The translations under genes and the position numbers were made by a program. The notes under the pieces are model-generated. The model was not told where the DNA came from. It searched no databases and worked only from the letters and a program-made list of their open reading frames with translations. From assembly GCA_965204755.1 (NCBI GenBank), contig OZ242011.1:416001-480000 (forward strand): 64,000 nucleotides of DNA, written 5' to 3'. Source of the DNA: Candidatus Marinacidobacterium sp. (lineage in GTDB: Bacteria > Acidobacteriota > Vicinamibacteria > Marinacidobacterales > Marinacidobacteraceae). Below are positions 14,492 through 39,610 of this stretch, piece by piece (position 1 is the stretch's first letter; each line of letters starts with the position of its first letter).

Positions 14492-15238
14492 ATGCCCGCT
14501 CCCGCTGCCGCCGGCCGGCAGACCGCGGCGCTCCTCGTCATCGGCAACGAAATCCTGTCCGGCAAGATCGCCGACACGAACACGCAGGCATTGGCCCGCC
14601 TCCTCCGGAAGAAGGGCGCGGCGCTTCGCCGCGTGGTGACCATCGGCGACGACCCCGCCGCCATCGCCACGGAGGTCGCCTCGCTCCGGGCCGACCACGA
14701 CCTGGTCTTCACTTCCGGCGGCGTGGGCGGCACCCACGACGATGTGACGATGGAGGGCGTCGCCCGCGCGTTCGGCGTCGGCGTCGTCCTCCATCCCGAG
14801 TTCCTGGAGGCCCTGCGCCGGCGCGGCCTCGGGGAACACCACCGCAGCCTCGCCCGCGCCCCGGAGGGCGCCGTCCTGCGGCGCGCCGAAGGCGCCGGCT
14901 TCCCGGTCGTGGTGATGGAGGAGGTCTGGATCCTCCCGGGCCTGCCACCCGCGTTCCGGCAGAAACTGGAGGTGCTCGACGCGTGCCTCCCGGACGGCGC
15001 GGCCTACGCCTGCGACGAGGAACGGGTCCCCGGCCCCGAGGAACACCTGATCCCGCTCCTGAACCGGGTCGTGGAGCAACACCCGGAGGTGCAGATCGGC
15101 TCCTACCCCGGAGACACGGAAACCCGCATCACCTTCGACGCCGACGACGAAGACTCGGTGCGCCGGGCCGCCGCCGCGTTCCGCGAGTCCCTGCGGGAGC
15201 GGAGCGCCGGCGCGGAGACGCGGGCAGGCGCGGTATGA
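14492..15238 (+). CDS. CinA-like/molybdopterin-binding-domain protein
   Basis: LLVIGNEILSGKIADTN, TSGGVGGTHDDVT, LPGLP, IGSYP. Confidence 0.85.
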   Translation: MPAPAAAGRQTAALLVIGNEILSGKIADTNTQALARLLRKKGAALRRVVTIGDDPAAIATEVASLRADHDLVFTSGGVGGTHDDVTMEGVARAFGVGVVLHPEFLEALRRRGLGEHHRSLARAPEGAVLRRAEGAGFPVVVMEEVWILPGLPPAFRQKLEVLDACLPDGAAYACDEERVPGPEEHLIPLLNRVVEQHPEVQIGSYPGDTETRITFDADDEDSVRRAAAAFRESLRERSAGAETRAGAV

Positions 15239-17346
15239 CGGGCCTTCTCACCGGGCGCGACCCGACACGGCGCGCAAGGTTCGCCTTCGCCGCGGCGGCC
15301 ATCTCCCTGCCCTTCGTTGCTGCAACTCCCGCCGCAACGCAGGACGCCCTCCCCCTGAGCGACACCCACCGCCAGTGGCTGGAAGAGGAAGTCATCTACA
15401 TCATCAGCGACAGGGAAAAGGACGCGTTCGGCCAACTCCAATCGGAGGCGGAACGCGAAGCCTTCATCGAAGCCTTCTGGCGCCGCCGCGACCCGGAACC
15501 GCTCACCCCGGAAAACGAGTTCCGCACCGAACACTACGAGCGCATCGCCTACGCCAACTCCCGCCTCGGCGGCGAAACCGCCATCCCCGGCTGGATGACC
15601 GACCGCGGCCGCCTCTGGATCACCTTGGGCGAACCGGACGAGCGCGACACTTTCGTATCCGTACCGGGTCTCTACCCGGCAGAACTCTGGTTCTACCTCC
15701 AAAACGACGAGTACCTGCTGCCTCCGCTCTACATCCTTTTCTTCCGGGAGTACAACGCCGGCCCGTTCATCCAGTTCAACCACCTGATCCACCTGCCGGA
15801 GGAACTGCTACCGGCACAATCCTTTTCGGAAGGGGATTCTCGTGACGAGGCATTCGTCACACTCCAAGAGATCTCTCCGCACCTCGCGCACGCCACTATC
15901 ACCATGCGGGCCGATCGTGGAGTCACGACCGGACTGGCCCTGCCGGACATCGCCCAGTTGGAAACACAGACGCTGCTCCAAGACATCACCCGCGCGCCGC
16001 ATCGTCTCCTCGACACGAGTTGGGTTACTGGGGCCGACGCCGGACGCGGTCTCGTCGAGACTGAGTACCTGTTCAACTTCGTCCCGAGCGCCGGCGTAGC
16101 TCGTCTCTTTCCAGGCCCTGCCTCCGGCCCCCCATCGTGGTTCGTCCACTACGCCGTTGAGATCGAGCCCCAGTACTTCACCCTCGCCCGCGAAGAAGGC
16201 GGCACCGACTACTTCACCCGGTTCGACATCCAAGGACAAGTAACCGACGAAGACGGCGCAGTCGTGTACGACTTCGCGACGAGACCGTTCCTGCGTCTGA
16301 CCGGGAGCGAACTTCGGGAGGTCGGCGCGCGGCCCTTCGCTTGGCGAGGAATGTTCCCCCTGATTCCCGGAGAGTTTCGGCTGCGCATCGTCGTCAAGAA
16401 CGAGGCCCGCGCCGAATACACCGTCTTCGAGGACAAACTCACACCTCCCGCTCCTGACGCGCCCCTCCTGTCACGCCCCCTATTGCTCCATGCCGTCAGG
16501 GAGGAGGACACTGACGCGTACGCATCGTGGTCTCCCGAGGAGATTCTCTTGGTGCCCAACGGCCGGGGCGTCGCTCCTCTTGGCGCCCTTCTTCTCGTCG
16601 CGACGGCAACCGAAGGGCACGGAATCGTAAAGTACCGCGTCGTTCCCTGGACCGCGGGCGGAACGGGGGCCGGCGCCGCGCCCGTCGCCGAACAGGAGGT
16701 CACGGTCGAACGAGGGCTCGCGCAATGGACACCGCGGACAGACTCATGGAAGTCCGGTCGCTATGTTCTCACCGCTGTCGCGGGGGAGGAGGAAACCAGC
16801 ACTCTCTTTGACTTGACAGCCCGTGCAGGAGTCGCACGGCCATGGGGGCTCACTGACTCTTTCGATCCAACGGCGCCCGGCACCTTGGCGGCCGCCCTCG
16901 GCGAGCAGTGGCTCCGGGTTCGGGAGAGGGCGGCAGCCCGCGAGATGTTTCGCACTGCGTTGGAAGAAGCGCCGAATCTCCGGCGCGCGCGCCTCGTCCT
17001 CGGCCGGTTCGCGCTGGACGAGAACACGCCCCGGGAGGCCGTCAGCCTTCTCGAACCGGCTCTCGCCCAAGCACCCGACGACCCCGGGATCCTGCGCACT
17101 CTGGGAGACGCGCACCGCGAATCCGGCAACCCCTCCCGGGCAGCAGCCCTCTATGAGCGTTCGCTCGCCCTCCGAAGCCCGGATGTGGAACTCCTCAACG
17201 CGCTTGGATGGTCACTTGCGGCGGCCGGCGAACCGACGAGAGCCATCGGGTATCTGGAGCGCTCGCTTGAATTCGACCCAGAACAGGCGGAAGTCCGAGA
17301 ACTTCTGAAGACCGTTCGCGCGAGCGCGTCCCCGCCGAAGGGCTGA
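15235..17346 (+). CDS. GWxTD domain protein with C-terminal TPR repeats
   Basis: WLEEEVIYII, FWRRRDP, EHYERIAYAN, GWMTDRGR; TPR-like helices at the C-terminus; ATGA overlap with the upstream stop. Confidence 0.88.
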   Translation: MTGLLTGRDPTRRARFAFAAAAISLPFVAATPAATQDALPLSDTHRQWLEEEVIYIISDREKDAFGQLQSEAEREAFIEAFWRRRDPEPLTPENEFRTEHYERIAYANSRLGGETAIPGWMTDRGRLWITLGEPDERDTFVSVPGLYPAELWFYLQNDEYLLPPLYILFFREYNAGPFIQFNHLIHLPEELLPAQSFSEGDSRDEAFVTLQEISPHLAHATITMRADRGVTTGLALPDIAQLETQTLLQDITRAPHRLLDTSWVTGADAGRGLVETEYLFNFVPSAGVARLFPGPASGPPSWFVHYAVEIEPQYFTLAREEGGTDYFTRFDIQGQVTDEDGAVVYDFATRPFLRLTGSELREVGARPFAWRGMFPLIPGEFRLRIVVKNEARAEYTVFEDKLTPPAPDAPLLSRPLLLHAVREEDTDAYASWSPEEILLVPNGRGVAPLGALLLVATATEGHGIVKYRVVPWTAGGTGAGAAPVAEQEVTVERGLAQWTPRTDSWKSGRYVLTAVAGEEETSTLFDLTARAGVARPWGLTDSFDPTAPGTLAAALGEQWLRVRERAAAREMFRTALEEAPNLRRARLVLGRFALDENTPREAVSLLEPALAQAPDDPGILRTLGDAHRESGNPSRAAALYERSLALRSPDVELLNALGWSLAAAGEPTRAIGYLERSLEFDPEQAEVRELLKTVRASASPPKG

Positions 17347-17494
17347 ACCACCCCACAGGCGGCTCCACACCTCGGAGCAGTGCAACCCGGTCAATTCGAT
17401 ATTTTGGACGGCGACCCTACCCCACCCGGACGCCGGCCCCGGCCTGAATCGCCAGCCTCCCGAGACTCTCGGAGAACGGCCCGCCTCCGATGCA

Positions 17495-17509
17495 TGGCAT
17501 AATCGTTGC
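17495..17509 (+). promoter_or_regulatory. Putative sigma-54 (-24/-12) promoter of the TonB receptor gene
   Basis: TGGCATAATCGTTGC matches TGGCACG-N4-TTGC with exact GG-GC spacing, ~105 nt upstream of the ATG at 17616. Confidence 0.65.
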
Positions 17510-17615
17510 CCGATCGCACCTCTCGGCCGTGCGAGAGCCGCCTCCCGCGACACCCGCAGGGCCCCTCATCTCGGCGACTCATTCTCGAGATCAACCTCAA
17601 TATCAAGGAGACCCA

Positions 17616-20600
17616 ATGCGAAAGCCCGCTTTCGCGCTGCTGCTCGCAGCGCTGCTCGCCGCTCCGACCCTTGCGTTCGGACAGGCGGGCGACTCCAGCC
17701 TTCGCGGCACGGTCCGCGACGACTCCGGCGCGGTGCTCCCCGGCGCGACGGTTACGGCGACCAGTCCGGCGCTGATCCAGCCCGCATCGACCGTTACAGA
17801 CAGCCAAGGCGCCTATCGGCTGGTGAACCTTCCCGCAGGCACCTACACACTGGAGGCGTCTCTTTCCGGCTTCAACACATTCCGACAAGAAGGCATCCTG
17901 CTGCGCGCCAGTTCGAACTTCGGCGTGGAGCCGGTGCTCTCAATCGGCGGTGTCGAAGAGACGATCACCGTCACGGCCGAGACCCCGATGCTCGAGGTCT
18001 CCCGTCCCGGCAACATCCTGACGATCGAGGGTGATCTGCAGCGCGATTTGCCGATCCAAGCGCGCGGCAACTGGAGCGACTTCCTCGAGTTGACCCCCGG
18101 CGTGAACGCCCGGCCCTTCGACGACGGCTCGGGCCGTATGGTTTATTTCGGCCATGCCACCGAGCACTTCTCCCATGTCATCCAGTTGGAAGGCATGGCC
18201 GCAGCGGGTTACACCGATTCGCAAGTCACATATGTCGGCATGAATGCCGACATGATGGAGGACATGTCGGTGAAGACTGGCGGCGCCGAAGCCAAGGATC
18301 CGATGGGCACCGGCCTGATCATCAATGTAATCACCAGGAGTGGCGGCAACGATCTCTCGGGCTCGGCAGCGTACGACCATCAGGAGTTCGACTGGGGCAC
18401 CGGCGACGATGACGGCTTGACTGGTTTCTTCGGCGACAACGAGGTTCCTCCCGGCTTCAACCCGTTTTCCGCCGAGAAGTCGAGCCTCGCCGGTCTCGAA
18501 CAGTATGGGAGTGGCGTCTACGATCCTGAGACTCAGGAAGGGAGAGCCGGTTCAACCGGCACTCCAACCGCCCATCTGGTGCGCCAAGCGGATTTCTCGT
18601 TCGGCGGCCCGATCATGCGCGACAAGGCGTGGTTCTTCGCGTCCTACCGATACGCCGATCTCTCGGCGCGGATCAGCCGTGGCGGAACCGATGTCGAACG
18701 CCTCACTGCCCTCTCCGGCATCGCCTTGGGCGGTCTCGGCGCCGCTCCGACCTACTCAGAGTTCCTGAACACGACCACGAGCCATCAGCCCTATCTCAAG
18801 ATCAGCGCCCAACTGAACTCGAGTCATGAACTGAACGCGTACTACCAGCGTGACACGACGGAGAACACTTCAAACCGCGAGTACGACCTCGCTTCGAGAC
18901 TCACTGTCCAGACCGGCGGTAACCTCTATGGTGCCAAACTGACATCGGTCTTCGGAGCGAACACAACCGGACAGTTCACTCTCTCCTACAACGACAAGGC
19001 ATCTCAGGTTCCCCTCGACCTCCAGCCGCAAGCGGGCGACCTACCGCTCTATCTGGAGATCCACAGCGGTTATTCGGTCAACAGCAGCGGAACGATCAGC
19101 GGGGGGGGGCGCCTCGCAGCCGCCGGCACCCCAAACGGCTCTGACCGGCCCGCGCGTCTCGTTCTTCTGCGGGGCGACATCACGCGCTATGTGGATGACT
19201 TGGCCGGTTCCCACGAGTTCGCTGTCGGTGTCTATGCGGCGCCTTGGAATCGCTATCCGAGCACAACTACCTACTCGTTGATGAACGGATGGTCCACCGA
19301 GCACCACGCCATGGTGGACGCCAACGGCAACATAACGGAAGATCTGGGTGCCGCGGCGGCTACCCGCTGGTTCTATCGGACCCGCACCGGCGACGAGTCC
19401 GGCCCGATCGCCACACTGCAGACGATCGACGCAACAGATAGTGATATCGGCGTCTATCTCCAAGACTCGTGGAAGCCAGCCGACCGGCTGACGCTGAATA
19501 TCGGGGTCCGCGCCGATTTCGTGCGACGCTCGGACGGGATTCGCAACTTCGACCGGATGAACACCGTGGCCATAGGCCCTCGTGCCGGCTTCGCCTACCA
19601 GGTCACCGCGGACGGCCGCAACATCCTCCGCGGCAGTTACGGCCGTGTACACGAACAGATGAACGGACGAGACGCGGTCACTCGGGTTCACGGCGGCGCC
19701 ACTGCCGGCAGTTACACGGAATATGACCACGACGGTGACGGTCTTCCGGATCACTCGGTGTACAACCCTCCGGTTGCCAGTCTGCCAAACGATGTGCTCT
19801 TCGACCCGGACATCGGGCAGCCGTTCGTGGACGAGTTCATCGGCGGCCTGCGGCGGCAGTTCGGCAGCCAGATTTCCGTGGACGCTGCGGTGATCCACCG
19901 CCGATACCAAGACAACTACGCGCTGCTCGATCAGAACGGGTACTACCCGTCCCAAGCACCGGCCCCGGTACCCTTGGGTGAGTTCCAGTTTGGCGCCGTC
20001 GACATTGAACAGGGTTCCATTCGCCAGCAGACGAACAACTCGTGGAGCCAGTTGCGCTATACGGCGATCGAGATCACGACGGCCCGCCGCACTGAGCGGA
20101 TGTCCGCCACGCTGAACTTCAGCCGCCAATGGCAGAGTTTCGGCGGCGACTGGAACCCCCACGACCCGGCCCGCTACATCCATCCGGAGAAGTTCGCATC
20201 CACCAAGGCCCTCTATATGCCGCGCGGCAACAACGAGCACAACACACTAAGGGCATCTACGGCGACCTCCTACGCGCCGACTTGGCGCCAGTGGTCACTG
20301 CGTGGCGGCATGAGTTATGTCATGCCTTACGACTTTACAGTCGCGGTGAGTTACACCGGGAACGCCGGACCGTGGACCGGTCCGCTTCTCCAGAGGCTGC
20401 CCAGCGACAGCCCAGATGTCGCGCAGTACGGCCCCGGCAGCGCGAACAACGGCAAGACGAATCCTCTGTCCACCAGGTACCGCGTCGTCGGGCCTGACCG
20501 AGGTGAACTGCAGGCCCAGGCGCCGACAGTCCACACGGTGGGGCTTTCGCTCGGGAAGATCCTCGACTTCGGCCCAGCACAACTCGAGTTGTCCGCCCAA

Positions 20601-20741
20601 GTCTTCAACCTGCTTGATGCCGCCAACCACAACCAGTTCACTTATAGTGGCGCGAATCGGACTTGGGTCCCGGCCTTTATGGAGTTGCGAAGCCGGCAGA
20701 ACGCGCGCACGATGCTCGTTCGAGGCACTCTCCGGTTCTAA
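17616..20741 (+). CDS. TonB-dependent receptor with N-terminal carboxypeptidase-regulatory-like domain (Oar-like)
   Basis: AAGGAG RBS; signal peptide; GTVRDDSGAVLPGATVT; FGGPIMRDKAWFF; YLQDSWK..RLTLNIGVR; C-terminal F. Confidence 0.9.
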   Translation: MRKPAFALLLAALLAAPTLAFGQAGDSSLRGTVRDDSGAVLPGATVTATSPALIQPASTVTDSQGAYRLVNLPAGTYTLEASLSGFNTFRQEGILLRASSNFGVEPVLSIGGVEETITVTAETPMLEVSRPGNILTIEGDLQRDLPIQARGNWSDFLELTPGVNARPFDDGSGRMVYFGHATEHFSHVIQLEGMAAAGYTDSQVTYVGMNADMMEDMSVKTGGAEAKDPMGTGLIINVITRSGGNDLSGSAAYDHQEFDWGTGDDDGLTGFFGDNEVPPGFNPFSAEKSSLAGLEQYGSGVYDPETQEGRAGSTGTPTAHLVRQADFSFGGPIMRDKAWFFASYRYADLSARISRGGTDVERLTALSGIALGGLGAAPTYSEFLNTTTSHQPYLKISAQLNSSHELNAYYQRDTTENTSNREYDLASRLTVQTGGNLYGAKLTSVFGANTTGQFTLSYNDKASQVPLDLQPQAGDLPLYLEIHSGYSVNSSGTISGGGRLAAAGTPNGSDRPARLVLLRGDITRYVDDLAGSHEFAVGVYAAPWNRYPSTTTYSLMNGWSTEHHAMVDANGNITEDLGAAAATRWFYRTRTGDESGPIATLQTIDATDSDIGVYLQDSWKPADRLTLNIGVRADFVRRSDGIRNFDRMNTVAIGPRAGFAYQVTADGRNILRGSYGRVHEQMNGRDAVTRVHGGATAGSYTEYDHDGDGLPDHSVYNPPVASLPNDVLFDPDIGQPFVDEFIGGLRRQFGSQISVDAAVIHRRYQDNYALLDQNGYYPSQAPAPVPLGEFQFGAVDIEQGSIRQQTNNSWSQLRYTAIEITTARRTERMSATLNFSRQWQSFGGDWNPHDPARYIHPEKFASTKALYMPRGNNEHNTLRASTATSYAPTWRQWSLRGGMSYVMPYDFTVAVSYTGNAGPWTGPLLQRLPSDSPDVAQYGPGSANNGKTNPLSTRYRVVGPDRGELQAQAPTVHTVGLSLGKILDFGPAQLELSAQVFNLLDAANHNQFTYSGANRTWVPAFMELRSRQNARTMLVRGTLRF

Positions 20742-20864
20742 CGCCAACGCTTAGGGCTGCCTACTGAACTCGCAGCCATACCACGACATTGTGGCGCTTG
20801 CCCTACGGGGTGAGCGCCACACTCATGTACGCTGGAGGTGGGGAGGAATGCCGCGACCCCCGAT

Positions 20865-21113
20865 CTTGACTTCGACGGTTTGGCCTTGTAAGTAGTTAAC
20901 GGGTTGGGAACTTGGTTTCGTAGGCACACTACAACCGGGCGGAGTTCGGGGGTGGAACCGGCGTGGCCCGCCGGGGCAGTCGGAGGCCCACCGGCCGGTA
21001 GATCCGCTCCGCCTCCGGGGTAGCCTTCGAGGGCAGGAAGAACCGCTCGTTCGTGCCCCGGTCGCAGCCGTGGGAGACCTCCACACGGAGCAGTTCCCGC
21101 AGCAGCCGCTCCT
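20865..21113 (-). mobile_element. 3' end fragment of an IS (probably IS1634 family, 'type B'), copy 1
   Basis: Near-identical to 22414-22735. Encodes a transposase-like C-terminus (ERLLRELL..LPSKATPEAERIYR..GLRLP) and ends in ...GTCGAAGTCAAG. Confidence 0.65.
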
Positions 21114-21114
21114 T

Positions 21115-21543
21115 TTGAGCAGGCAAAAAAATGTCCCCACTTTTCGGCAACCAAAATGCCCCACCTGCCGGCCCGCGGGAGAGAAGCTTGTCTTGGCGCG
21201 GCATTACCTGAACTGGGGGCTGAGCCGTCGGTTCGGGGGTAAGCCGGCGGACGCTGGGGCGGTGGCTGGCGTCGGGGATCTGGTGGCGGAGCGGCAGGAG
21301 GCGGTTCGGTATCGGGATCGGCTCCCGGGTCCGACGGTTCTGGACGGGTATCGGGAGGAGTGGGGCCAAGTGCTGGGGGACGAGGTGATGGCGGCGGCGA
21401 TGCTGGATCGGCTGCTCCACCACGCCCACATCGTGAACATCCGGGGGAACAGCTACCGGCTCCGGCACCGGGAGGACCTCGTCAAGGTGTTCCGTCGGCG
21501 AACGGGAGAGGAGCCGGCGTCAGCCGGAACGGGCAACGCATGA
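21115..21543 (+). mobile_element. Internally deleted IS21-family remnant (left end + istA 5' fragment fused to istB 3' fragment)
   Basis: Repeated AAAATG(T/C)CCC(C)AC end motifs; LARHYL..GLS istA-like start; EEWGQVLGDEVMAAAMLDRLLHHAHIVNIRGNSYRL is an IstB C-terminus. Confidence 0.75.
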
Positions 21544-21673
21544 GGTCGGCCCGGCCCCTCCGCTTCACCCGGTTCCGGCGCCGGAGCACCGCCCCTCAGG
21601 TCGGTCGGGCCGCTGGCTCCCTCGGCCCTCCGGGCCTCCGTCCCAAGCGGCCCGACCGACCCGTCGGAGCCCT

Positions 21674-21958
21674 CTAGCACTCGTCGCAGCTGGGGCCGCC
21701 GCAGGTGTCGCAGGTGTCGGGGCAGGTGTGCCTCTCGTCGTCCGTCGGACCCGGGCAGCCGCCGCAGGTGTACCCGCAGGTCGGGCAGCAGGTCCGCGGG
21801 CAGGTCGGGTCGCAGGTGTTGTGGCCTCCGGCGGCATCCCCCATCTGGTCGTCGGTGAGGCTGACCAGGGGACGCTTCTTCAGGCGGAGCACCTGCTTCT
21901 TCTCGGTCTTCTCCTCGGCCGGCGGCCGCGGACCCGTCTCAGTGGCGGACTTTTTCAT
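21674..21958 (-). CDS. RiPP-like precursor peptide (94 aa): double-Gly leader + Cys/Thr-rich core
   Basis: GGGAGA RBS; leader ...LRLKKRPLVSLTDDQMGDAAGG; 49-aa core HNTCDPTCPRTCCPTCGYTCGGCPGPTDDERHTCPDTCDTCGGPSCDEC. Confidence 0.8.
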   Translation of the reverse strand: MKKSATETGPRPPAEEKTEKKQVLRLKKRPLVSLTDDQMGDAAGGHNTCDPTCPRTCCPTCGYTCGGCPGPTDDERHTCPDTCDTCGGPSCDEC

Positions 21959-22181
21959 CGTCGTCTTCTCCCATGGAAGGAAACAGTGGACCAATCGGCC
22001 GGCTCTCGCTCGACCGCCCGGTGAACTGTTGGCCAGTATCCGGCTCGAGACGGGAGATGTCAAACGCGTAGTCGGGGACGAGACGGCAGGAGCCCGGAAC
22101 CTTCGAAACGGGGGTTGCTCCCCGCTCCCGGAGCGTCAGAAGGCCCGACCGCATTACCGTTCGGAACACACGCCTGCTTCA

Positions 22182-22413
22182 ACAGCCCACGGAAGCACGC
22201 CAGGACGCCTCGGCCGGGGATCGCGGCAAGGCGAGTCGGTATCGGGTGTGGCGACCGGCGCCGGAGCGAGGGAGCGCGCCGAGGGTCACCAGCCCTGCGA
22301 GGTCGCAGGTCGCGGTGGCTGGAGTGGCGGCGGCGGTGCGGCGGTAGTTCCCGGCGCTGAGGCGGCCCTCGAGACCCTCCGGCCTCCGACCGGAACAGGC
22401 GGCGCAGCGCCTT
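22182..22413 (-). pseudogene. fic pseudogene, 3' part
   Basis: DNA similar to 28501-28737 (3' end of the intact fic); cut off at 22414 by the IS end. Confidence 0.75.
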
Positions 22414-22735
22414 CTTGACTTCGACGGTTTGGCTTTGTAAGTGGTTGACAGTTAGGGAGTTGGTTTCGTAGGCACACTACAACCGGGCGGAGTCCGGCGG
22501 GGAGTGTCGGGGGTCAGGCGACTTCGCGCGAGTCGCCTCGGGGGTGGAACCGGCGTAGCCCGCCGGGGCAGTCGGAGGCCCACCAGCCGGTAGATCCGCT
22601 CCGCCTCCGGGGTGGCCTTCGAGGGCAGGAAGAACCACTCGTTCGTGCCCCGGTCGCAGCCGTGGGAGGCCTCCACCCAGAGCAGTTCCCGCAGCAGCCG
22701 CTCCTCGCGCAGCGGCGCCTCCGGGTAGGCCCGGG
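22414..22735 (-). mobile_element. 3' end fragment of the 'type B' IS, copy 2
   Basis: Starts CTTGACTTCGACGGTTTGG like 20865; encodes the same transposase C-terminus. Confidence 0.65.
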
Positions 22736-22739
22736 CGTA

Positions 22740-24270
22740 GACGCCGTGGAGGCCGTCCGCCTCAGCCTCGAGGGCCGGAACCTCGTCGAACCCGGGGACG
22801 CCTTCCAGATCCTCCGCGCCCTCCCCCACGGCCACGCCGCCGCCGCCCTCGGAACCCTCAAGCGCCTCCGACTGCCGGGCCTCCTCGACCGCAAGCGCTT
22901 CCGACCCCCGCGACCTCGCCCTCGCCCTCATCGCCGCCCGACTCCTCGCCCCCCGCCCCAGACTCGCCACCGCCCGGACCCTCGCGCCGGAGACCGCCTC
23001 CGCCTCCCTCGGCACCCTCCTCGATCTCGGGGAAGTGCGGTTACAGCCGGGACCGCAGGAGCAACACCCTGCAGATCGTCTTCGGCCTGCTCTGCTCCAA
23101 GGAGGGCTGCCCGGTCGCCGTCGAGGTCTTCCCCGGCAACACCGCCGACCCCGAGACGGTGGCCGCCCAGGTGGCCAAACTCCGCGACCGCTTCGGCCTC
23201 CGCCAACTGGTCCTGGTCGGCGACCGGGGGATGCTCACCGCCCGGCGCATCCGCGAGGACCTGAGCCCGGAGGAGGGCTTCCGCTGGGTCACCGCGCTGC
23301 GCTCCGCCGATATCCGCGCCCTGGTCGAAGCCGGCGCGGTGAACCCCTCCCTGTTCGACCGGCGGGACCTGGCCGAGATCTCCTCCGACCGCTACCCCGG
23401 GGAGCGCCTGGTGGTCTGCTTCAACCCCCGGCTCGCCGAGGAGCGCCGCCGCAAGCGCGAAGACCTGCTCGCCGCCACCGAGAAAGCGGCTGGAAGCCAT
23501 CGCCGCCGCCACCCGGCGCGAGCGCCGACCGCTGCGCGGCGCCGCCCGCATCGGAAAGCGCGTCGGCGCCCTCATCGGCCGCTTCAAGGTCGAAAAGCAC
23601 TTCCTCACCGAGATCACCGACGACTCCTTCGCCTTCCGCCGGAACGAAGACGCCATCGCCCGGGAACGGGCCCTCGACGGCTTCTACATCCTCCGCACCA
23701 ACGCCGAGCCCGAACTGCTCTCCACCGAACAGACCGTCCGCGCCTACAAGTCCCTCGCCTCGGTGGAGACCGCCTTCCGCAGCATGAAGTCCCTCGACCT
23801 CCAGGTCCGCCCCATCCACCACCGCCGCCCCGACCGGGTCCGTTCCCACATCTTCCTGTGCATGCTCGCCTACTACCTGGAATGGCACATGCGCCAGGCG
23901 CTCGCCCCCGTCCTGTTCCAGGACCACGACCGGGAGGCCGCCGAGCGCGAGCGCCCCTCCCCGGTCCAGCCCGCGCAGCGCTCCCCGGCGGCCAAGGCCA
24001 AGGTCGCCGCCCGCCGCACCCCGGAGGGGCTGCCGCTGCACGACTTCCCGACGCTGATCCAGCACCTCGGGACCCTCACCCTCAACACCGTCCGCGCCCC
24101 CAGCCGGAACGCCACCTTCCAGATGCGCGCGAACCCCACCCGGCTCCAGGCAAAGGCCTTCGACCTGCTCCGCCTTCCCGCCTCCGCGTAGCCAGAACCG
24201 AACACCCCCCGCCGCGCGGATCCCCGGTCCGTTCTCGGGCTTCTGACCTTTTGCCCCTTGGAACTTCCGG
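22740..24270 (+). mobile_element. Degenerate IS1634-family element (5'-truncated, frameshifted copy of 58816-60776)
   Basis: Near-identical DNA to the intact copy. Internal deletion near 23035, frameshifts near 22900 and 23483, terminal IR TGGAACTTCCGG ending at 24270 followed by CTAG. Confidence 0.88.
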
Positions 24271-24273
24271 CTA

Positions 24274-24640
24274 GTCTGTGTCGCCAACGCGGTCTCGGCG
24301 AACCACCGCAGCCACGGGGTAATGTCGAAGGAGCGGTTCACCCGTTCGATGACTTGGTAGTATGGTCGGCGGCGGGCGATCTCGCGGGAGGGTGCCGCCA
24401 GGCTCGAGCCGCCGAGGGCTCGCGCCAGCGCCTTTTCCGCCCAGGGCGCGGGCCATGCGTCCGCTACCGTTCTCGAAGGGATGGACGAAGACGAAGCCGA
24501 GATGGGCCACGCCGGCCGAAGTGACCCGTGGGAGCCCTTCCGCCGCGGATCTCTCGTACCAGCGGACGAATTGCTCCATTTCAGCCGGTAGCGCCCCTCG
24601 CCACTTTGCCGGAAGGTCCTGACTTCAGGGAGGTCGGTGA
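24274..24640 (-). pseudogene. fic pseudogene, middle part
   Basis: MEQFVRWYERSAAE...HPFENGSGRMAR...INRSFDITPWLRWFAETA-like frames; similar to 28830-29240 but frameshifted. Confidence 0.8.
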
Positions 24641-24682
24641 CAGCCGGGCAGCAGGTGTCGATACCGGTCGTATACTCGGCAC

Positions 24683-26137
24683 ATGAACCGTCGACGGAGA
24701 GAAGTGGAGATCGTTCCCTGGGTGCGCTACATCCGCCTTGGCGCCGTCGTCTGCGCGCTGGTCGGCTCGGTTTCCGGCTGCGGAGAGGATTCGGCCGCGC
24801 CCGCGACACCCGGCCCGGCGGCGCCGGCGCTCCTGCCTCCGGAGACGCGGCCCGAAGCCGTCGTTCCCGGAGAGATTCGCGCGTGGCTCGACGCGAATGT
24901 CCATCCGTTCGACGGCGCGCATCTCTCGCTGCCCCACACGGACATCGAGTTCCTGCGCGACTTGGTGGGCGACGCACGCGTGGTAGCGCTCGGCGAGGCC
25001 ACCCACGGCACTCGGGATTTCTTCGAAATGAAGGCGCGCATCCTCCGGTTCCTGGTCGAAGAAATGGGCTTCAACACCTTCGCCATCGAGGCCTCTTGGC
25101 CGGAGGCGATGCGCCTCGACCGCTATGTGCGCACCGGAGACGGCGATTCCGCCGTACTCCTGTCAGGGCTGTACTTCTGGACCTGGCGGACCGAGTCGGT
25201 GCTGGAGATGATCGAGTGGATGCGTGCCCACAACGAGGCGGGCGGGAACATCGGATTCCATGGCATAGACATGCAACTTCCCAGAATGGCCCTGCACATC
25301 GTGCGTGAATTCATCCGTTTCGTGGACCCCGCGCGCGTGGACGAGGTGGCCTCCCGGCTCGACTGCCTCGCTCGGCACGCCAATCAGCCGGATCGACTGC
25401 TGCCGCCAGTGAGTTATCGGGACCTGACGGACGCCGAGCGGGCGGAGTGCGGCGCCGCCCTGGAGGAAGTGGGGGCGCTTCTGGAGGCGAACCGCGCACG
25501 GTACGAGTTGGCCGGAGGCGTGAACACGGCAGCAGTCGCAGAGCGGAGCCTGCGCATCGCCTACCAGTATCACTTGGCAGAGGTCGGGAGGAGTGAAGGG
25601 GGACGGGCGCAAGGGGCGGCGCTTCGGGAAGGGTTCATGGCAGAGAACACCCTTTGGCTCAACGACCGCATCGGGCCTGAGGGTCGCATGGTGCTCTGGG
25701 CGCACAACCTCCATGTTGCGACCAAGCCCGGGAGACAGGGGCACTATCAGCGGGAGGCCCTCGGCGACGACATGGTGGTCATCGGTTTCAGCCACGAAGG
25801 CGGCCGCTTCACCGCCGGCGACCTGTCACGGAGCCCATTCATGCAGAGGGTGTTCGATCTGCCGCCCCCCGTGGAGAATTCCTTCGAGGCGATTCTGGCC
25901 GGGGCATCTCCTCCGAGGTTCGTCCTCGACCTGCGCCGGACCGCAGACGAGCCCGGAAGTGAGTGGTTGTTCGAACCTCGCCTGTTCCGCAACATCGGGT
26001 GCTGCTTCCACCCGGACTGGTCGACACGGTCGGTCTTCTCCCTGAGTCCGCTCCCGGATTGGTTCGACGCCATCATCCACTTCGAGTCCACTCGGCCGAC
26101 TGTCCTGCTGCCGTCGCGGCTGCCAAGTACTTGGTGA
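24683..26137 (+). CDS. Erythromycin-esterase-family lipoprotein
   Basis: Lipobox VSGC; VALGEATHGTRDFF, FAIEASW, GFHGIDMQ, LWAHNLH, FDAIIH. TATACT lies 6 nt before the ATG (possible leaderless mRNA). Confidence 0.88.
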   Translation: MNRRRREVEIVPWVRYIRLGAVVCALVGSVSGCGEDSAAPATPGPAAPALLPPETRPEAVVPGEIRAWLDANVHPFDGAHLSLPHTDIEFLRDLVGDARVVALGEATHGTRDFFEMKARILRFLVEEMGFNTFAIEASWPEAMRLDRYVRTGDGDSAVLLSGLYFWTWRTESVLEMIEWMRAHNEAGGNIGFHGIDMQLPRMALHIVREFIRFVDPARVDEVASRLDCLARHANQPDRLLPPVSYRDLTDAERAECGAALEEVGALLEANRARYELAGGVNTAAVAERSLRIAYQYHLAEVGRSEGGRAQGAALREGFMAENTLWLNDRIGPEGRMVLWAHNLHVATKPGRQGHYQREALGDDMVVIGFSHEGGRFTAGDLSRSPFMQRVFDLPPPVENSFEAILAGASPPRFVLDLRRTADEPGSEWLFEPRLFRNIGCCFHPDWSTRSVFSLSPLPDWFDAIIHFESTRPTVLLPSRLPSTW

Positions 26138-26139
26138 AG

Positions 26140-28335
26140 ATGAACTGCCGCGCCGCGCGGTCGGTGGGAAGCCGGTTCGTGCGCCTGTCGATCGTCGCCG
26201 CCTTGGTGCTCGGAGGCTGCTCCGGCGAGTCGCCGACCCTGCCCGGTGCTCCTCCGACACCGAATGCACCACCCGCGACGGTCCCCGAACCGCCGACCGA
26301 AGCGCCAGCGACTGGCCGAATTTCCGTCACCGACGACGATCTCATTCTCGCCGAACTGATCTCGGGCGACATGACCGGCAGTCCTTTCGACCTGAACGGG
26401 AAGACACTGGTCTTCACACCGGACGGCTCGGGCGGGTATTCGCGCTCCGTCAACCCGGTGCTCTGGGAGGCAGATGTCGGCGACGATGTCTCTGTCCTCG
26501 CTCCCGTCGCGTTCCGGAACTTCCGGTTCGAGTTCTCCGGGCAGCGGTGGGACTCGTTCCACATCAGTCCGAGGGGAGTGCTGACTTTCGGCAGCCCTTA
26601 CATCGACTCGTACTGGGCCACGCAACGGTTTTCGACCATGCGCCAACTCGCAGCGCCCCTGTCCGACCAGCCCACCATCAGTGTCCTGTACAAACCACTC
26701 CTCTTGCGGCACGGTATCGGACCCTTCGTCTCGTACCGGCCGGACCGGGTAGTCGTTACTTGGCTGGCGAGGGAGCCCCTCTTTTATGTCGACGGCGTTC
26801 CTCCCAAGGAGCCTTCCCGCTTCCAAGCCGTCCTCGGCGCCGACGGGAGCATCCGGTTCAACTACCTCGATGTCGCCTTCGGCGACGGCGTCGTCGGTCT
26901 TTTCCCGGCGACGGCCCCTGAGAAGGGCGACCTCATCGCCAGCCTTACGGACGCGAGGGATCCCTCGCTTCCCGGTCATCTCGACCTCCTGGAAGCGGCC
27001 ATCTACGGGACCGACACCGCTGACCGGGTGATCGTGGAATTCACCGTGCGCGACACGATCCCCGATCCGGCCGCCGGTATCGCCATCACTTATGGTCTCC
27101 TGTTTGATACGGATGAACCGTACTGGACTTATTGGAGCAACGCAGATGAGGACTTCCGATTGTCCATACGCTTGGAAGACGGCGACACCCGAACCAGAGG
27201 AGGGTCACTGTTGCCTCGGGAGGCAGGCGATCGGATCGCGATGCTGGCCGATATCGGTTTCTCGGCCAGCATCATGGCCAGCGCCACGCAGTACGAACGC
27301 TCCGTCTGGGCCGCCGGCGACAGCACGACCCCGCGTGAGGTCACGGTGCCGGAGGCGACGACGGATCTGTCGAAATCTGAAGATGGGTTCACTACGAGGC
27401 CGCGCGAGGTCTTCCGCTATCGCGACGCCCCCGACCTCGCCGCCGTCGCGTGCCGCATCGTCGCAGAATTGGGCGACACTTTCGACTTGTTCGTGTTCCA
27501 CAGCGAGTTCCGGATAGATGTCCAAGAGAGCCTGTCGGACTGGCGGGCGTACGGGAGCAACGAGGGAGTGCGGGGAACCGGCATGGGGTACCAGAGTCCC
27601 GCTCCATGCGGCAGAGGTCGGCTGAAGGGTCATTGGAGGATCCCGAACTGGGTCAAGGGCGGGAATGTGTGGTCGAGGAGTCGCGCGGAGTCCGAAGTCG
27701 CTGCCGATGGATTCGATGCCGGCCGGTACCACTTCGCCCATGAGTTCGGACATACCTGGCTGGCGGTGGCCGGCTATGAAGAGAACGGCGTGCGCCGGGA
27801 ATTGTCTCGAACCGGACATTGGCTCCCCGGACTCCACGCGCCTACAGCGTTTCCGTGGCGGGAGAATGTGCGGTGCCGTCGCTCGCTTATGGGAGGGTGG
27901 TACTGGGTCGAAAACGAAGACGGGTCATTCACTCGGGAAAACTGCTACGGCGCCTCCGCCCGAGGCTTTTCGTGGTTGGATCTCTATCTCATGGGACTGG
28001 CTCGCGCCGATGAGGTTCCAGACATGTTCATCGTGCGGAACCTGCGGGAAATCGGAGAGTTGCGGTACTCCGGCGACAAGGAGGTGGTGTCGATCGAACA
28101 GATCATCGCTGCCGAGGGGCTACGCGAGCCGACTCCCGCGACATCGCAGAAGGACTTCAACGCCGGCTTCGTGTACCTGCTGGATCCTGGGCAGGTACCG
28201 GAGCCCGACCTGCTGGAGCGCCATGGGCGATTTCGGGACGCGGCCGTTGAGCACTGGGAGCACATCACGGGCGGGCGTTCCCGTATTACGACTGAAGTCG
28301 CCCGGGAAAATCGAGCAGCGGCCACGAGGAAGTGA
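26140..28335 (+). CDS. Secreted lipoprotein with nidogen-like region and HExxH zinc-metallopeptidase domain
   Basis: Lipobox VLGGC, Pro-rich linker, VVVTW..FQAVL..DGSIRFNY, FAHEFGHTW, GHW, LDLYLMGL. Confidence 0.7.
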   Translation: MNCRAARSVGSRFVRLSIVAALVLGGCSGESPTLPGAPPTPNAPPATVPEPPTEAPATGRISVTDDDLILAELISGDMTGSPFDLNGKTLVFTPDGSGGYSRSVNPVLWEADVGDDVSVLAPVAFRNFRFEFSGQRWDSFHISPRGVLTFGSPYIDSYWATQRFSTMRQLAAPLSDQPTISVLYKPLLLRHGIGPFVSYRPDRVVVTWLAREPLFYVDGVPPKEPSRFQAVLGADGSIRFNYLDVAFGDGVVGLFPATAPEKGDLIASLTDARDPSLPGHLDLLEAAIYGTDTADRVIVEFTVRDTIPDPAAGIAITYGLLFDTDEPYWTYWSNADEDFRLSIRLEDGDTRTRGGSLLPREAGDRIAMLADIGFSASIMASATQYERSVWAAGDSTTPREVTVPEATTDLSKSEDGFTTRPREVFRYRDAPDLAAVACRIVAELGDTFDLFVFHSEFRIDVQESLSDWRAYGSNEGVRGTGMGYQSPAPCGRGRLKGHWRIPNWVKGGNVWSRSRAESEVAADGFDAGRYHFAHEFGHTWLAVAGYEENGVRRELSRTGHWLPGLHAPTAFPWRENVRCRRSLMGGWYWVENEDGSFTRENCYGASARGFSWLDLYLMGLARADEVPDMFIVRNLREIGELRYSGDKEVVSIEQIIAAEGLREPTPATSQKDFNAGFVYLLDPGQVPEPDLLERHGRFRDAAVEHWEHITGGRSRITTEVARENRAAATRK

Positions 28336-28500: not shown

Positions 28501-29631
28501 TCACCAGCCCGCAGGCGCACGCGAGGACGCCTCGTCCAACGGTGGCGGCAAGGCGAGCAGGTATCGGGTGTGGCGACCGGCGCCGGAGCGGTGGAGCGCG
28601 CCGAGGGTCACCAGCCCCGCGAGGTCGCGGGTCGCGGTGGCCGGGGTGGCGCCGGTGATGCGGCGGTAGTTCCCGGCGCTGAGGCCGCCCTCGAAGCCCT
28701 CCGGTTCCGCGCGGAACAGGCGGCGCAGCGCCTTCGCCTCGCGGGGGCTCAATCGGTCGCCCAGCCGTCGGAACATCCGCGCCTGTTCCACCGAGCAGGC
28801 GACGCGGCGTTCGCTCCAGCGCTGGGCGGCCACCGCGGTCTCGGCGAACCACCGCAGCCACCGGGTGATGTCGAGGGAGCGGTTCGCCCGTTCGAGGACC
28901 TGGTAGTAGGCGCCGCGGCGGCAGGCGATCTCGCGGGAGAGCGCGATCAGGCTCGGGCAGCCGAGGGCGCGCGCCAGCGCCTTTTCCGCCACGGAGCGGG
29001 CGATGCGTCCGTTGCCGTCCTCGAAGGGATGGACGAAGACGAAGTCGAGGTGGGCCACGCCGGCCCAGGTGAGCGGGGGGAGCGCCTCCGCCGCGGACCT
29101 CTCGTACCAGCGGACGAATCGCGCCATTTCGGCCGGAACCCGCGCGGAAGGCGGCGCTTCGTAGTGAACTGCGGCGGCCGGGCCGGAGACGACCTGCATC
29201 GGTTGGCCGCCTCGCCGGAAGGCCCCGATCTGGGATAGATCGGAACGGCCACGCAAGAGACGCCGATGCCAGTCGCACAACCCGGAGAGCGCCAGCGGCC
29301 GGTCGAAGTCGGAGTAGAGGGCGACCATCAGGTCCGCCGCCCCGGTCTCCTCCGGAGTCGGACGCCGCTGCTTGCCCTTCCAGCCGAAGTGCTCCCGGAT
29401 GGAGGACTGCAACGAGTCGCGATCGAGGATCTCCCCCTCGATGGCCGAGGTCTCGACCGCCTCGTCGGTCAGGAACTCCACCCGGAGTTCCCGGCGTTCC
29501 TCCTCATCGAGATGCCACGCCGCTCCCAGCGACCGTTCCGCCGCGAGGCGGAAATCGGCCTCGAGCGGCGCGATCTCCGCTTCGTCCCAAGTGAACCGGG
29601 GCCACTCCGGCCGCTGCCGGATCCAGCGCAT
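28501..29631 (-). CDS. Fic family protein (DUF4172 N-terminus, C-terminal HTH)
   Basis: MRWIRQRPEWPRFTWD, TSAIEGE, canonical HPFEDGNGRIAR, C-terminal ATATRDLAGLV..G.GRHTRY. Confidence 0.9.
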   Translation of the reverse strand: MRWIRQRPEWPRFTWDEAEIAPLEADFRLAAERSLGAAWHLDEEERRELRVEFLTDEAVETSAIEGEILDRDSLQSSIREHFGWKGKQRRPTPEETGAADLMVALYSDFDRPLALSGLCDWHRRLLRGRSDLSQIGAFRRGGQPMQVVSGPAAAVHYEAPPSARVPAEMARFVRWYERSAAEALPPLTWAGVAHLDFVFVHPFEDGNGRIARSVAEKALARALGCPSLIALSREIACRRGAYYQVLERANRSLDITRWLRWFAETAVAAQRWSERRVACSVEQARMFRRLGDRLSPREAKALRRLFRAEPEGFEGGLSAGNYRRITGATPATATRDLAGLVTLGALHRSGAGRHTRYLLALPPPLDEASSRAPAGW

Positions 29632-37378: not shown

Positions 37379-38644
37379 ATGCTCGAACGCCTCACCGTCC
37401 GCGGCTTCAAGTCGCTGCGGGATGTGACTTTCGAGCCCGGCGAACACCTGACCGTCCTCTTCGGCGCGAACGCCGCCGGAAAAACGAACTTGGTCGAGTC
37501 CATCGCCGCCCTCGCGGCCCTCGCGACCGGAGCCGACCTCCACGACGCCCTCGACCGCCCGTTCCCCGTCCGCGGCAATCCCGCCGAGGTGTTCGCCTTC
37601 CCGCCGCCCGGACTCTCGGCGCTGTTGGAGACGGAAGGCCCGGATCCGGTCCTGTCGATCGAGGCCGACTTGGCAACCGAACGCGGCTCGTACCGGTACC
37701 GCATCGCGCCCGGTCTCACGCGTCCGTCCGGCCACCTCTTCGTCGCCGACGAATACCTGGTCCGGACGGGGACGGAAAACGAGTCCGGGCCACTGATCGA
37801 GCACGCGGACGAACGACTCCGCATTCGCGGCGACGGTCGGCAGGTGGAGGCGCAGTACGAGCCACTCCGCCAAAACCACTCGATGCTGTCCTCCGATCGC
37901 TTCCGCGGTCCCGGATACGAGCGACTCGACGCCGTTCGTCGCGAATTCCGGAATTGGCGCTCCTGCGCCCTGGAGCCGCGGTTCCAGATGCGGAGCCTCC
38001 AATTCCCCGCCGATGTGAAGGACATCGGCCCGCACGGTCAACACCTGGCTTCCTTTCTCCACAAATTACAGACTGCGGCGCCCGAGCACTTCGAGTCGTT
38101 GATTCTCAAGATGCGGGTTCTCGTGCCCGCCGTCGAGGGCCTGCGCATCCATAGGGAACCGATTCGAGGCGCCCTCGACATCATGGTCAGCGAAGGCGGC
38201 GTCGAATACCCGACCGCGCTCGTGTCGGAGGGAACGCTGCGGGCGCTCGCCCTGTGCGCCATCGCCGTGAATCCTTGGCGGGAGGGCGGCCTCCTCACCA
38301 TGGAGGAGCCGGAAAACGGCGTCCATCGGCGCCACCTCGACCTCTTGGCCCGGCTGCTGCTCTCCCTGGGTCAGGACGGCCGGCGCCAGGTCATCGTCAC
38401 CACGCACTCTCCACGATTCGTCGAGACCGTGCTGAAGATGAAGCGCGACAGCGAACAGCCGGACGGAATACGCCTGTTCCAAGTTCGGCGCGCGAACCCC
38501 GGGAACGGCAGCGGCGCCAGCGTCGAGCCCTTCGAGATCCCTCCCGCGCTCCTCGATGATCCCGAACTCACCCGCGCCCTCGCCGACCGCGGCGACGACG
38601 GGCTGTTCGAGGGCCTGCTCCTGCGCGGGTACCTGGATGGCTGA
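37379..38644 (+). CDS. ABC-type (AAA_21-like) ATPase, copy 1
   Basis: GFKSL, Walker A GANAAGKT, SEGTLR signature, Walker B/D-loop MEEPENGVH, TTHSP. Confidence 0.88.
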   Translation: MLERLTVRGFKSLRDVTFEPGEHLTVLFGANAAGKTNLVESIAALAALATGADLHDALDRPFPVRGNPAEVFAFPPPGLSALLETEGPDPVLSIEADLATERGSYRYRIAPGLTRPSGHLFVADEYLVRTGTENESGPLIEHADERLRIRGDGRQVEAQYEPLRQNHSMLSSDRFRGPGYERLDAVRREFRNWRSCALEPRFQMRSLQFPADVKDIGPHGQHLASFLHKLQTAAPEHFESLILKMRVLVPAVEGLRIHREPIRGALDIMVSEGGVEYPTALVSEGTLRALALCAIAVNPWREGGLLTMEEPENGVHRRHLDLLARLLLSLGQDGRRQVIVTTHSPRFVETVLKMKRDSEQPDGIRLFQVRRANPGNGSGASVEPFEIPPALLDDPELTRALADRGDDGLFEGLLLRGYLDG

Positions 38645-39286
38645 GGAAGTCTTCGCCGTCCTGCTCGCCGAAGACCGCGCCCATGAACTGTTCCTGAAGC
38701 CCCTGCTTCGCCGACTCGCCGAAGAAAGCGGCGCAACGATGGAGATCCGCGTTATCTCCGCGCGGGGCGGTCACGGCGTCGCGCTTGGTGAGTACCGGAC
38801 CTACCAACGCGCCCGATCCATCCTGTTCGCCGGTGATCCGGTCCCCGACCTCGTCGTCGTAGCACTCGACGGCAACTGCTCGTCCTTCGCCGAGACGCGA
38901 GCGAGCATCGAAGATGCCACCGACGACACGCTGCGGACCCGCCTGGTCACCGCCTGCCCCGATCCCCACATCGAACGCTGGTACCTCGCTGATCCCGCGG
39001 CCCTGAAACGGCTCGTCGGAAAGGCGCCGACCCTCGGGGCGACGAAATGCGAACGCCACTACTACAAGCGACTACTACAAGCGACTACTACAAGCGACTC
39101 CTCGCCGAGACGCTGCGCGGAGGACGCTATCCCGCCGTGCGGTACGACGACACCGAGTTCGCTCCCCGGATCGTCGAAGAAATGGACCTGCACCGCGCCG
39201 GCAGGAACGACCACTCGCTGAGAGCCTTCCTTCGCCAAACCGCGGACCGGCTCCGGCAGATCGTCGGCGTACGCTCCCGGGACTGA
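38637..39286 (+). pseudogene. DUF4276/TOPRIM-like putative nuclease, copy 1, frameshifted by a tandem repeat
   Basis: MAEEVFAVLLAEDRAH..LDGNC..PHIERW. The C-terminus (YYKRLLAE...RAGRNDHSL) is in another frame after the 13-bp repeat. Confidence 0.75.
39058..39099 (+). repeat. 13-bp tandem repeat ACTACTACAAGCG x3 (+ACT)
   Basis: Read directly at 39058, 39071 and 39084. Confidence 0.95.
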
Positions 39287-39314
39287 GGGTCGCCGCATCC
39301 CGCGTATCCGGATC

Positions 39315-39610
39315 GCCGCGCCGGAGGGTATGGAGACCACCTCCCCTCGAACATCGAGGAGACATCGCGACGAAACGCGCCCGACAGCATGGGAACTCCC
39401 CGGCATCCGCCGCCGGTGCGGAACATGACCTTGCCCACCTCTCCGTCGCGGGTGTCGGGGACGGTATGATCGTCGCCGTGCTCGATCTCATGCGCTTCGC
39501 GGTGGCGCCGGGCGCCGAAACGATCCCCGCCGCCGCCGCCGCTGCCCGCTGCCTTGCCGGAGACACCCTCGCCTCGGCCGCCGAAGGCTCCGCCCGGTAG
39601 CCGCGCCGCC
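39315..39610 (+). pseudogene. Decayed duplicate of the 3' part of the serine hydrolase gene
   Basis: Blocks such as ATGGAGAC(C/G)ACCT..CTCGAACA, ATGATCG..GCTTCGCG..GAAAC and GCCGCCGAA..CCCGGTA match 36860-37360 in order. Confidence 0.7.

Follow-up and report, generated by a model that had tools for sequence, protein, structure and literature searches.

A 94-amino-acid (aa) open reading frame (ORF) on the reverse strand at 21674..21958 of a 64,000-nucleotide (nt) stretch of DNA from Candidatus Marinacidobacterium sp. (contig OZ242011.1, positions 416,001 to 480,000; hereafter the window) is probably a functional, separately transcribed LanA, the precursor of a class I lanthipeptide, which would be matured in trans by enzymes encoded elsewhere in the same genome. 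Maturation in trans appears to be the best reading because this genome (3.98 Mb in a single contig, GC 71.7%, marker completeness 89%) contains one LanC, one full LanB and one C39 domain, located ~0.97 Mb from the window precursor beside a paralog with the same leader, and no YcaO, MNIO or SPASM match. A preliminary description of the window had proposed modification in trans into a densely cross-linked peptide; this now appears to be its best-supported reading, on the strength of the paralogs, the enzyme cluster beside the first of them (P1) and the co-occurrence of precursor and enzymes in seven genomes. SPASM and MNIO enzymes, for which it had also suggested a search, are among those without a match.

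Translation of the window DNA bore out the gene structure given in the preliminary description: a ribosome-binding site, a 94-aa ORF, a leader of 45 aa (codons 1-45, 21824-21958) and a core of 49 aa (codons 46-94, 21677-21823; stop codon 21674-21676) with 12 Cys and eight TC dipeptides. The leader has the C-terminal end LRLKKRPLVSLTDDQMGDAAGG, and the core has the sequence HNTCDPTCPRTCCPTCGYTCGGCPGPTDDERHTCPDTCDTCGGPSCDEC. The core also carries nine Thr and one Ser, the latter in an SC dipeptide, so that the Ser/Thr and Cys residues able to form (methyl)lanthionine are present, and its two Cys clusters are separated by PGPTDDERH. In the leader, the motif LxLxKx5L is found as L24-R-L26-K-K28-RPLVS-L34, followed by a double-glycine site at G44-G45. 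The earlier assignment to the double-glycine class I leader type fits the LxLxKx5L...GG motif that the available text of Walker et al. 2020 (PMC7268733) gives for Bacteroidetes class I LanAs associated with C39 proteases, a group that includes pinensin. It had been considered that the ORF could be a fragment of a larger Cys-rich protein, but the longest start-to-stop ORF in this frame is only 129 aa (21674-22063) and the precursor is therefore not a piece of one. The composition of the core also stands apart from the rest of the genome. A six-frame scan of 46,489 stop-to-stop frames of at least 30 aa counted eight TC dipeptides in the last 55 residues of the precursor frame and three in the runner-up, among frames with at least seven Cys in that region; the remaining Cys-rich frames are off-frame noise, typical at 72% GC. 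The mature 49-aa product would be rigid, proline-rich, polycyclic and strongly anionic (net -6), and is therefore unlikely to be a classical cationic lantibiotic.

The signals expected of an expressed gene are present and intact. A Shine-Dalgarno-like GGGAG (21968..21972, reverse strand) lies 9 nt 5' of the ATG, and a sigma-70-like promoter site, TTGACA-17 nt-GATACT (22035..22063, reverse strand), matches the hexamers at 10 of 12 positions; one such site was found, compared to a mean of 0.0 in 50 shuffles. At the same alignment columns 5' of three precursor genes of the sister genome, G002 of the same genus, the sequence is TTGAC or TTGAA. The upstream spacer, 220 nt in length, survives amid mobile DNA. 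Downstream, an inverted repeat beginning 12 nt past the stop codon forms a hairpin with 16-bp perfect arms and a 31-nt loop (21599..21661, reverse strand), with a fold energy of -66.9 kcal/mol (z -5.5) that was equalled by none of 200 shuffles. This hairpin is likely the end of the transcript, its function as a terminator being putative because it lacks a U-tract. Judged from these elements, the transcription unit looks intact, with a length of about 465 nt.

The peptide is a member of a small and conserved family of precursors. A word-indexed protein search identified 22 homologues of 89-106 aa with 45-100% identity over the aligned part, all 12 Cys being kept in near relatives at 92-94% identity; it had been foreseen that homologous leaders and maturases might be lacking from this and related genomes, and this is not so, with LanB and LanC present in seven of the 28 genomes from taxonomic family f1. 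A profile search of 1.84 billion cluster representatives returned 79 matches at E<=1e-3 (20 at E<=1e-10), only four of which exceed 135 aa; the weaker matches are short peptides with a leader of the KKLxLKKxT...GG type. A scan of metagenome contigs added a single locus of 1.2 kb (L010), which offers no useful context. In an alignment of 25 sequences, L24, R29, L34, Q38, A43, G44, C49, C53 and P54 are invariant, and T48, T52, T56, C57, C61, T64, C65, C79, C86 and C91 are conserved in at least 90%. The consensus after the double glycine is HPHxTC(E/D)PTCPxTCCPTCPxTC followed by a variable tail; most cores start with HPH, two residues of which are missing in the window peptide and its closest relatives. 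The cores of the family carry 9-14 Cys in a (TCxx)n repeat: in 35 sequences of the family, 294 of 409 Cys have Thr or Ser immediately before them, and 203 of 374 Cys-Cys gaps have a spacing of four. All 25 aligned cores are anionic, with net charges of -3 to -8 (median -6).

Same-leader paralogs, the search for which had been proposed earlier, were found in the window's own genome by a six-frame regular-expression scan, and there are exactly two: P1 (genome 1409543-1409851, reverse strand) and P2 (genome 1593672-1593980, forward strand). Against the family profile the window precursor scores best of the three (117.6 bits, compared to 96.9 for P1 and 95.5 for P2). By blastn (E 1e-5) the window gene matches neither P1 nor P2 in its DNA, and the relationship is visible at the protein level only.

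The genes anticipated by the preliminary description, lanB, lanC and a C39 exporter, were all found downstream of P1 and on the same strand. They encode a LanC of 405 aa (PF05147, 2e-27), a full-length LanB of 1095 aa with its glutamylation and elimination domains (PF04738, 1.5e-143; PF14028, 4e-58) and a C39-ABC (ATP-binding cassette) exporter of 743 aa; LanB and LanC lie at genome 1.4046-1.4092 Mb, and the reading frames of all three are open. Both HlyD-type genes of the cluster were also detected by tblastn with the sister-genome proteins. A whole-genome count gives one full LanB (plus a fragment beside P2), one LanC and one C39 domain, and it is observed directly that this sole C39 match sits in the exporter of the P1 cluster. 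The closest solved relatives of the LanB are 9g04, MibB (5ehk, 2e-45) and NisB (4wd9, 1.4e-20), and the LanC matches the LanC-like fold family (8byk, 1.3e-11). Dehydratases of class I depend on glutamyl-tRNA, as is established for NisB. The LanM model produced only partial, far sub-threshold matches to LanC. At the P2 locus (genome 1593672-1594650; L008/L022), an outer-membrane protein (OMP) of the cluster type, 77% identical to the cluster OMP of the sister genome, is encoded directly upstream of the precursor, and the LanB fragment downstream is short, covering profile positions 284-344 only. At P1, a copy of insertion sequence (IS) IS21 occupies the place where the OMP gene would stand, and the full LanC-LanB-HlyD-C39-ABC-HlyD set lies downstream. 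Compared in this way, an ancestral lanthipeptide cluster appears to have been duplicated and then split between P1 and P2.

The association of precursor and enzymes extends to the relatives of this bacterium. The precursor profile found matches in 7 of 61 relatives' genomes, all of them in family f1 (6 of 27 other f1 genomes, 0 of 33 genomes of other families), and LanB, as well as LanC above its cut-off, was found in exactly the same 7 of the 28 f1 genomes; this co-occurrence is given as a pattern and not as a statistic because kin are not independent. The homolog neighbourhoods, which had been named earlier as a place to look, show precursor, LanC and LanB clustered in all six other genomes, with one family member 1.6-2.1 kb from LanB and LanC between them. 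The cluster order, seen in full or in part across the cluster regions of these six genomes, is Oar-type OMP, precursor, LanC, LanB, small HlyD, C39-ABC and long HlyD. A TCEPTCPQTCCPTCPHTC block is common to the window precursor and the LanC-adjacent precursor of the sister genome. That genome has 10 precursor matches at six loci with one LanBC, and the window's own genome has three precursors at three loci, also with one LanBC.

A recurrent companion of the precursors, both in and outside the clusters, is a gene for an Oar-type OMP. The one in the window (17490..20741, forward strand, 1083 aa) is convergent with the precursor gene and encodes a CarboxypepD_reg N-terminal domain followed by a large beta-barrel (PF13620, 2e-19; PF25183, 1.8e-20; weak PF00593), with no match to the Plug domain at E<=0.01. 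An Oar-type OMP gene stands directly upstream of the cluster precursor in all six other genomes, and of P2. Five of the cluster OMPs are mutually 74-81% identical, and G012 and G017 have other types (28-30%). In the sister genome, a PF13620 match is found within 7 kb at 6/6 precursor loci (37 matches in 4.5 Mb), and in the window's own genome at 2/3. At least four OMP types occur beside precursors; those of the window and its sister-genome counterpart L004, of L005 and of L006 share about 25-40% identity. The L006 type (71% identical between two genomes) accompanies precursors with a NATCDATC block, at an orphan locus in one genome and in the cluster in the other. A protein of ~630-660 aa with a DAO (FAD oxidoreductase) C-terminal domain precedes the L006-type OMP in two genomes, at the orphan precursor locus itself (L006:3625-5508) and in the LanBC cluster of G012 (L038:16660-18648).

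Oar of Myxococcus xanthus, a CarboxypepD_reg-type TonB-dependent transporter, is needed for secretion of PopC according to the available text of PMC6434023, and both export and re-uptake are therefore conceivable for the precursor-linked OMPs. The window OMP resembles Oar, as described there, in having a PF13620 N-terminal domain ahead of a large barrel, and differs from it in lacking a Plug match; its part in peptide transport is proposed from the arrangement of the genes. TonB-independent uptake has been reported for noursin, in the portion of the literature available. As a speculation that we think has only a small chance of being right in full, the precursors and their adjacent Oar-type barrels could be cognate peptide-transporter cassettes, in which a single LanBC/C39 hub would produce a set of class I lanthipeptides that are hyper-cross-linked, anionic and rich in His, Asp and Cys, each secreted or re-imported through its own TonB-dependent-like OMP and serving this host-associated acidobacterium as metal or nutrient scavengers or as signals, not as antibiotics. 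The diversity of OMP types beside precursors and the company that the L006-type OMP keeps with NATCDATC precursors hint in this direction.

From these data we infer expression of the window gene, recognition of its leader in trans, and the number and pattern of its rings. Transcription would run from the gene's own promoter (22063-22035) to the hairpin (21661-21599). The sole LanB of the genome would recognize the LxLxKx5L leader and dehydrate Thr and Ser of the (TCxx)n core, after which the sole LanC would couple the dehydro residues to Cys thiols. As the core has 10 Ser/Thr and 12 Cys, the number of (methyl)lanthionine rings is limited to 10, leaving a minimum of two Cys free or in a disulfide. 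The sole C39 domain, that of the cluster ABC exporter, would cut after Gly45 during export, assisted by the two HlyD-type adaptors, and passage through the outer membrane, or later re-uptake, would probably proceed via an Oar-type TonB-dependent-like barrel, e.g., the adjacent one. Since the enzymes lie ~0.97 Mb away beside P1, one maturation hub would serve dispersed precursors.

Several observations weigh against this account. A Pfam scan of the 52 window ORFs found no LanB, LanC, LanM, radical-SAM or C39 match; the absence of a maturase from the 64 kb had been stated in the preliminary description and stands, the only LanB, LanC and C39 matches of the genome lying outside the window. The window precursor is thus not adjacent to LanB or LanC, and the nearest are about 0.97 Mb off. 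Because the genome is 89% complete, YcaO, MNIO and SPASM are not found in the whole-genome scans rather than proven absent. The leader search that had been suggested did yield a match to a profile hidden Markov model, NCBIfam NF038153 (lant_leader_L1a), but with 18.1 bits (E 0.0022) the window leader falls below the cut-off of 22; P2 scores 11.7 bits and P1 has no match. Neighbouring T and C residues cannot bridge each other, leaving two candidate ring patterns: rings could run forward and overlap, from dehydrobutyrine Dhb(i) to Cys(i+5), or run in reverse over four residues, from Cys(i+1) to Dhb(i+4). Of 35 family cores, 27 have more Cys than Ser plus Thr, and thioethers therefore cannot hold all Cys. 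The precursor gene is flanked by IS fragments. Nei-Gojobori ratios of nonsynonymous to synonymous change (pN/pS) against the paralogs come to 0.65-0.84 over the whole leader and to 0.81-2.0 over the core, and because these paralog comparisons are short and diverged they give no clean signal of purifying selection. Finally, contigs of runs X2 (21560-21983) and X4 (21668-21945) show no difference from the window, and the identical copies in runs X1, X2 and X4 may represent one strain; X1 may be the source sample.

The IS fragments and the pN/pS values are the basis for the best surviving alternative, which is that the window gene is a decaying relic, stranded by IS-mediated rearrangement and unexpressed or unused, with P1 beside lanC-lanB as the only real substrate. 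On the downstream side, an IS21 remnant (21355..21595, forward strand) consisting of the last ~40 residues of IstB (IstB_IS21 profile positions 197-236) and the element end abuts the hairpin; 21355-21479 matches the IS21 copy next to P1 with 83% identity, 21523-21595 matches the DNA next to P2 with 93%, and other contigs diverge past 21595. On the upstream side, the flank is disrupted from 22179 to 24588, where two pieces of a copy of a Fic gene (22179-22414 and 24283-24588), 86-87% identical to the intact Fic gene by blastn against the genome, are separated by IS fragments at 22412-22745 and 22740-24274, and these IS pieces are 95-98% identical to two to five other copies in the genome. IS21, IS4-like and other IS fragments thus stand on both sides, the cluster of this genome is itself clearly rearranged, with P2 retaining the cluster-type OMP and only a fragment of LanB, and pN/pS is not clearly below 1. 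Decay is nevertheless unlikely, as the ORF, ribosome-binding site, promoter hexamers and hairpin are all intact, the window precursor outscores P1 and P2 against the family profile, the sister genome has two intact precursors at the same place of the syntenic locus, and its precursors are as a rule dispersed. A contig from a sponge metagenome (X5) also speaks against it: in 182 shared coding nt there are three changes, worked out by hand at codon level, of which two are synonymous and one replaces Asp50 with Glu. The 240 nt upstream contain 18 substitutions and five indels, yet all 12 promoter hexamer positions are unchanged, compared to changes at 5 of 17 spacer positions, such that the coding part and hexamers are kept where the spacer and 5' region have drifted. 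The X5 contig diverges completely 3' of 21777 at a sharp breakpoint and therefore has a different C-terminal core on the same leader, which, as far as the contig reveals, looks like a cassette-style exchange of the variable core end.

A second alternative, raised in the preliminary description as a metallothionein-like metal binder, not positively supported here and given slightly less credence than decay, is that the product is a secreted thiol-rich metal binder, exported by the double-glycine/C39 route largely unmodified or partly cyclized, binding metal via free Cys, His, Asp and Glu, and taken up as a complex by the adjacent TonB-dependent-like barrel. The excess of Cys in the window core (12 against 10 Ser/Thr) and in most of the family, the uniformly acidic cores with their prevalent HPH start, and the Oar-type OMP genes within 7 kb of all sister-genome loci and of two of the three own loci are what such a binder would have. 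Metal binding alone does not require Thr or Ser before 294 of 409 Cys, however, nor does it account for the strict co-occurrence with LanB and LanC; most thiols would be consumed by thioethers, no metal-related gene was identified at the window locus, and the precursor has no metallothionein match in Pfam or NCBIfam. Additional or other chemistry beyond (methyl)lanthionine, installed by an unrecognized enzyme (e.g., a C-terminal aminovinyl-cysteine (AviCys), or thiazoles as in ThaA/ThaO), is the least probable: a C-terminal Cys is present in 20 of 35 family members including the window peptide, a thiazole-installing GMC oxidase is known for the Cys-rich lanthipeptide core of another acidobacterium (available text of PMC13083261) and the DAO-domain protein precedes the OMP at the L006 and G012 loci, but YcaO, MNIO and SPASM were not found in the genome, no further enzyme is conserved within the cluster in the genomes examined, and each genome's two HFCD flavoprotein matches are separated from the clusters by 25 kb to about 300 kb, so that a LanD/AviCys reading was dropped as a leading one.

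A functional LanA matured in trans has parallels in several known systems. In the prochlorosins, one LanM (ProcM) serves many dispersed ProcA precursors, and the likeness extends to one maturase set with several scattered precursors and to a conserved leader with a variable core; the window system differs in using class I LanB and LanC in place of a class II LanM, in the conservation of the N-terminal half of the core, and in the outer-membrane barrel gene paired with each locus. The nisin system (NisA/NisB/NisC) has a homologous LanB and the LanC-like fold, whereas here the FxLD box is missing from the leader, export and cleavage are assigned to C39-ABC and not to a subtilisin, the product is anionic, and the host is a diderm whose cluster includes HlyD adaptors and an OMP. 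The Bacteroidetes-type class I LanAs, as far as the available text of Walker et al. goes, are alike in leader motif, double-glycine end, cluster C39-ABC exporter and a core rich in Ser/Thr and Cys. Compared to these, the present host is acidobacterial (Vicinamibacteria), LanB is full-length and not split, the core has 9-14 Cys in a (TCxx)n repeat and a net charge of -3 to -8, NF038153 is missed by 4 bits, and the gene lies 0.97 Mb from its presumed enzymes. ThaA/ThaM/ThaO of a coral-associated acidobacterium is a Cys-rich class II lanthipeptide in which a GMC oxidase forms thiazoles (PMC13083261); it shares with the window family an acidobacterial, host-associated origin and a Cys-rich core, but the clusters examined here showed neither a LanM nor a GMC enzyme, and the acidobacterial lanthipeptides in the available text of that report are of classes II and III and differ from the window family. 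No description of the window precursor family was found in the literature searched, which covered main texts only (supplementary files could list such clusters).

The family is a real one of peptides made on the ribosome and modified after translation (RiPPs), with a core and a charge that are unusual and an OMP partner that recurs, but it does not amount to a new principle. It provides a case in which a precursor lacking any maturase in 64 kb can be assigned to enzymes by its leader family and by genome-wide co-occurrence, and presents a class I equivalent of the logic by which one enzyme serves many precursors. From the (TCxx)n core and its 9-14 Cys, a ring topology that is unusually dense and possibly new is predicted, and the strongly negative charge speaks against action on lipid II or membranes in the usual way. 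The recurrent pairing with an Oar-type barrel, in and outside the cluster, suggests an outer-membrane transport step that is undescribed for lanthipeptides in the literature searched; if this pairing is functional, it would provide a testable handle on RiPP export or uptake by diderm bacteria.

The preliminary description had called the precursor an orphan, which is correct in that no maturase is encoded nearby but not with respect to its neighbourhood, which is conserved (Oar-type OMP, GWxTD/TPR protein and Fic protein) and syntenic with locus L004 of the sister genome. There, two tandem precursors correspond to the single window precursor (21674-21958), the Oar-type OMP is 76% identical to that of the window (17490-20741), the GWxTD/TPR protein is 72% identical to the product of window 14983-17346, and the Fic/DUF4172 protein (L004 8623-9729), whose gene directly precedes the precursors at L004, is 73% identical to the product of window 28501-29631. 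The window Fic/DUF4172 protein (28501..29631, reverse strand, 376 aa) was identified by Pfam. The GWxTD-domain/TPR protein (14983..17346, forward strand, 787 aa; PF20094 plus TPR; TIGR04514, 4.5e-29) is the upstream partner of the OMP. As a partner of the precursor it was considered and rejected: within the window's own genome, three of five full-length tblastn matches adjoin Oar-type OMP matches, and of the GWxTD/TPR-OMP pairs at 0.43, 0.64 and 2.02 Mb only that of the window is near a precursor.

A further neighbour, at 24683..26137 (forward strand), encodes a 484-aa protein of the erythromycin esterase family (PF05139, 2.1e-71). The window's own genome has six PF05139 matches, of which one lies in the window and five stand in tandem near P2 (genome 1577912-1585000), and each of the six has a precursor gene within 16 kb; in the sister genome, all matches lie within 6 kb of precursors. 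A general link between esterase and precursor was rejected, as the association is confined to the genus, being not seen in G012 and G025, with G017 having no copy. The region from the OMP through the precursor to the esterase (window 16000-28000) has a GC content of 62-67%, compared to 70-78% in the flanks.

Among the mobile elements, the IS fragment at 22740-24274 is 96-98% identical to a DDE_Tnp_1 (IS4-like) element at window 58812-60673 and to a copy at genome 0.705 Mb. In G025, an IS21 IstB gene stands between the cluster OMP and the precursor. Two precursor matches in other genomes, G025:C17:1159132-1159362 (L014/L041) and G002:C1:4409186-4409461 (L029), contain one in-frame TGA each, and these copies may be broken. 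Elsewhere in the window, at 37379-41509, a gene for an AAA_21/AAA_15 ATPase followed by one for a DUF4276 protein occurs twice in tandem (37379-38644 with 38556-39221, and 39625-40881 with 40874-41509), in what looks like a duplicated defence-type gene pair.

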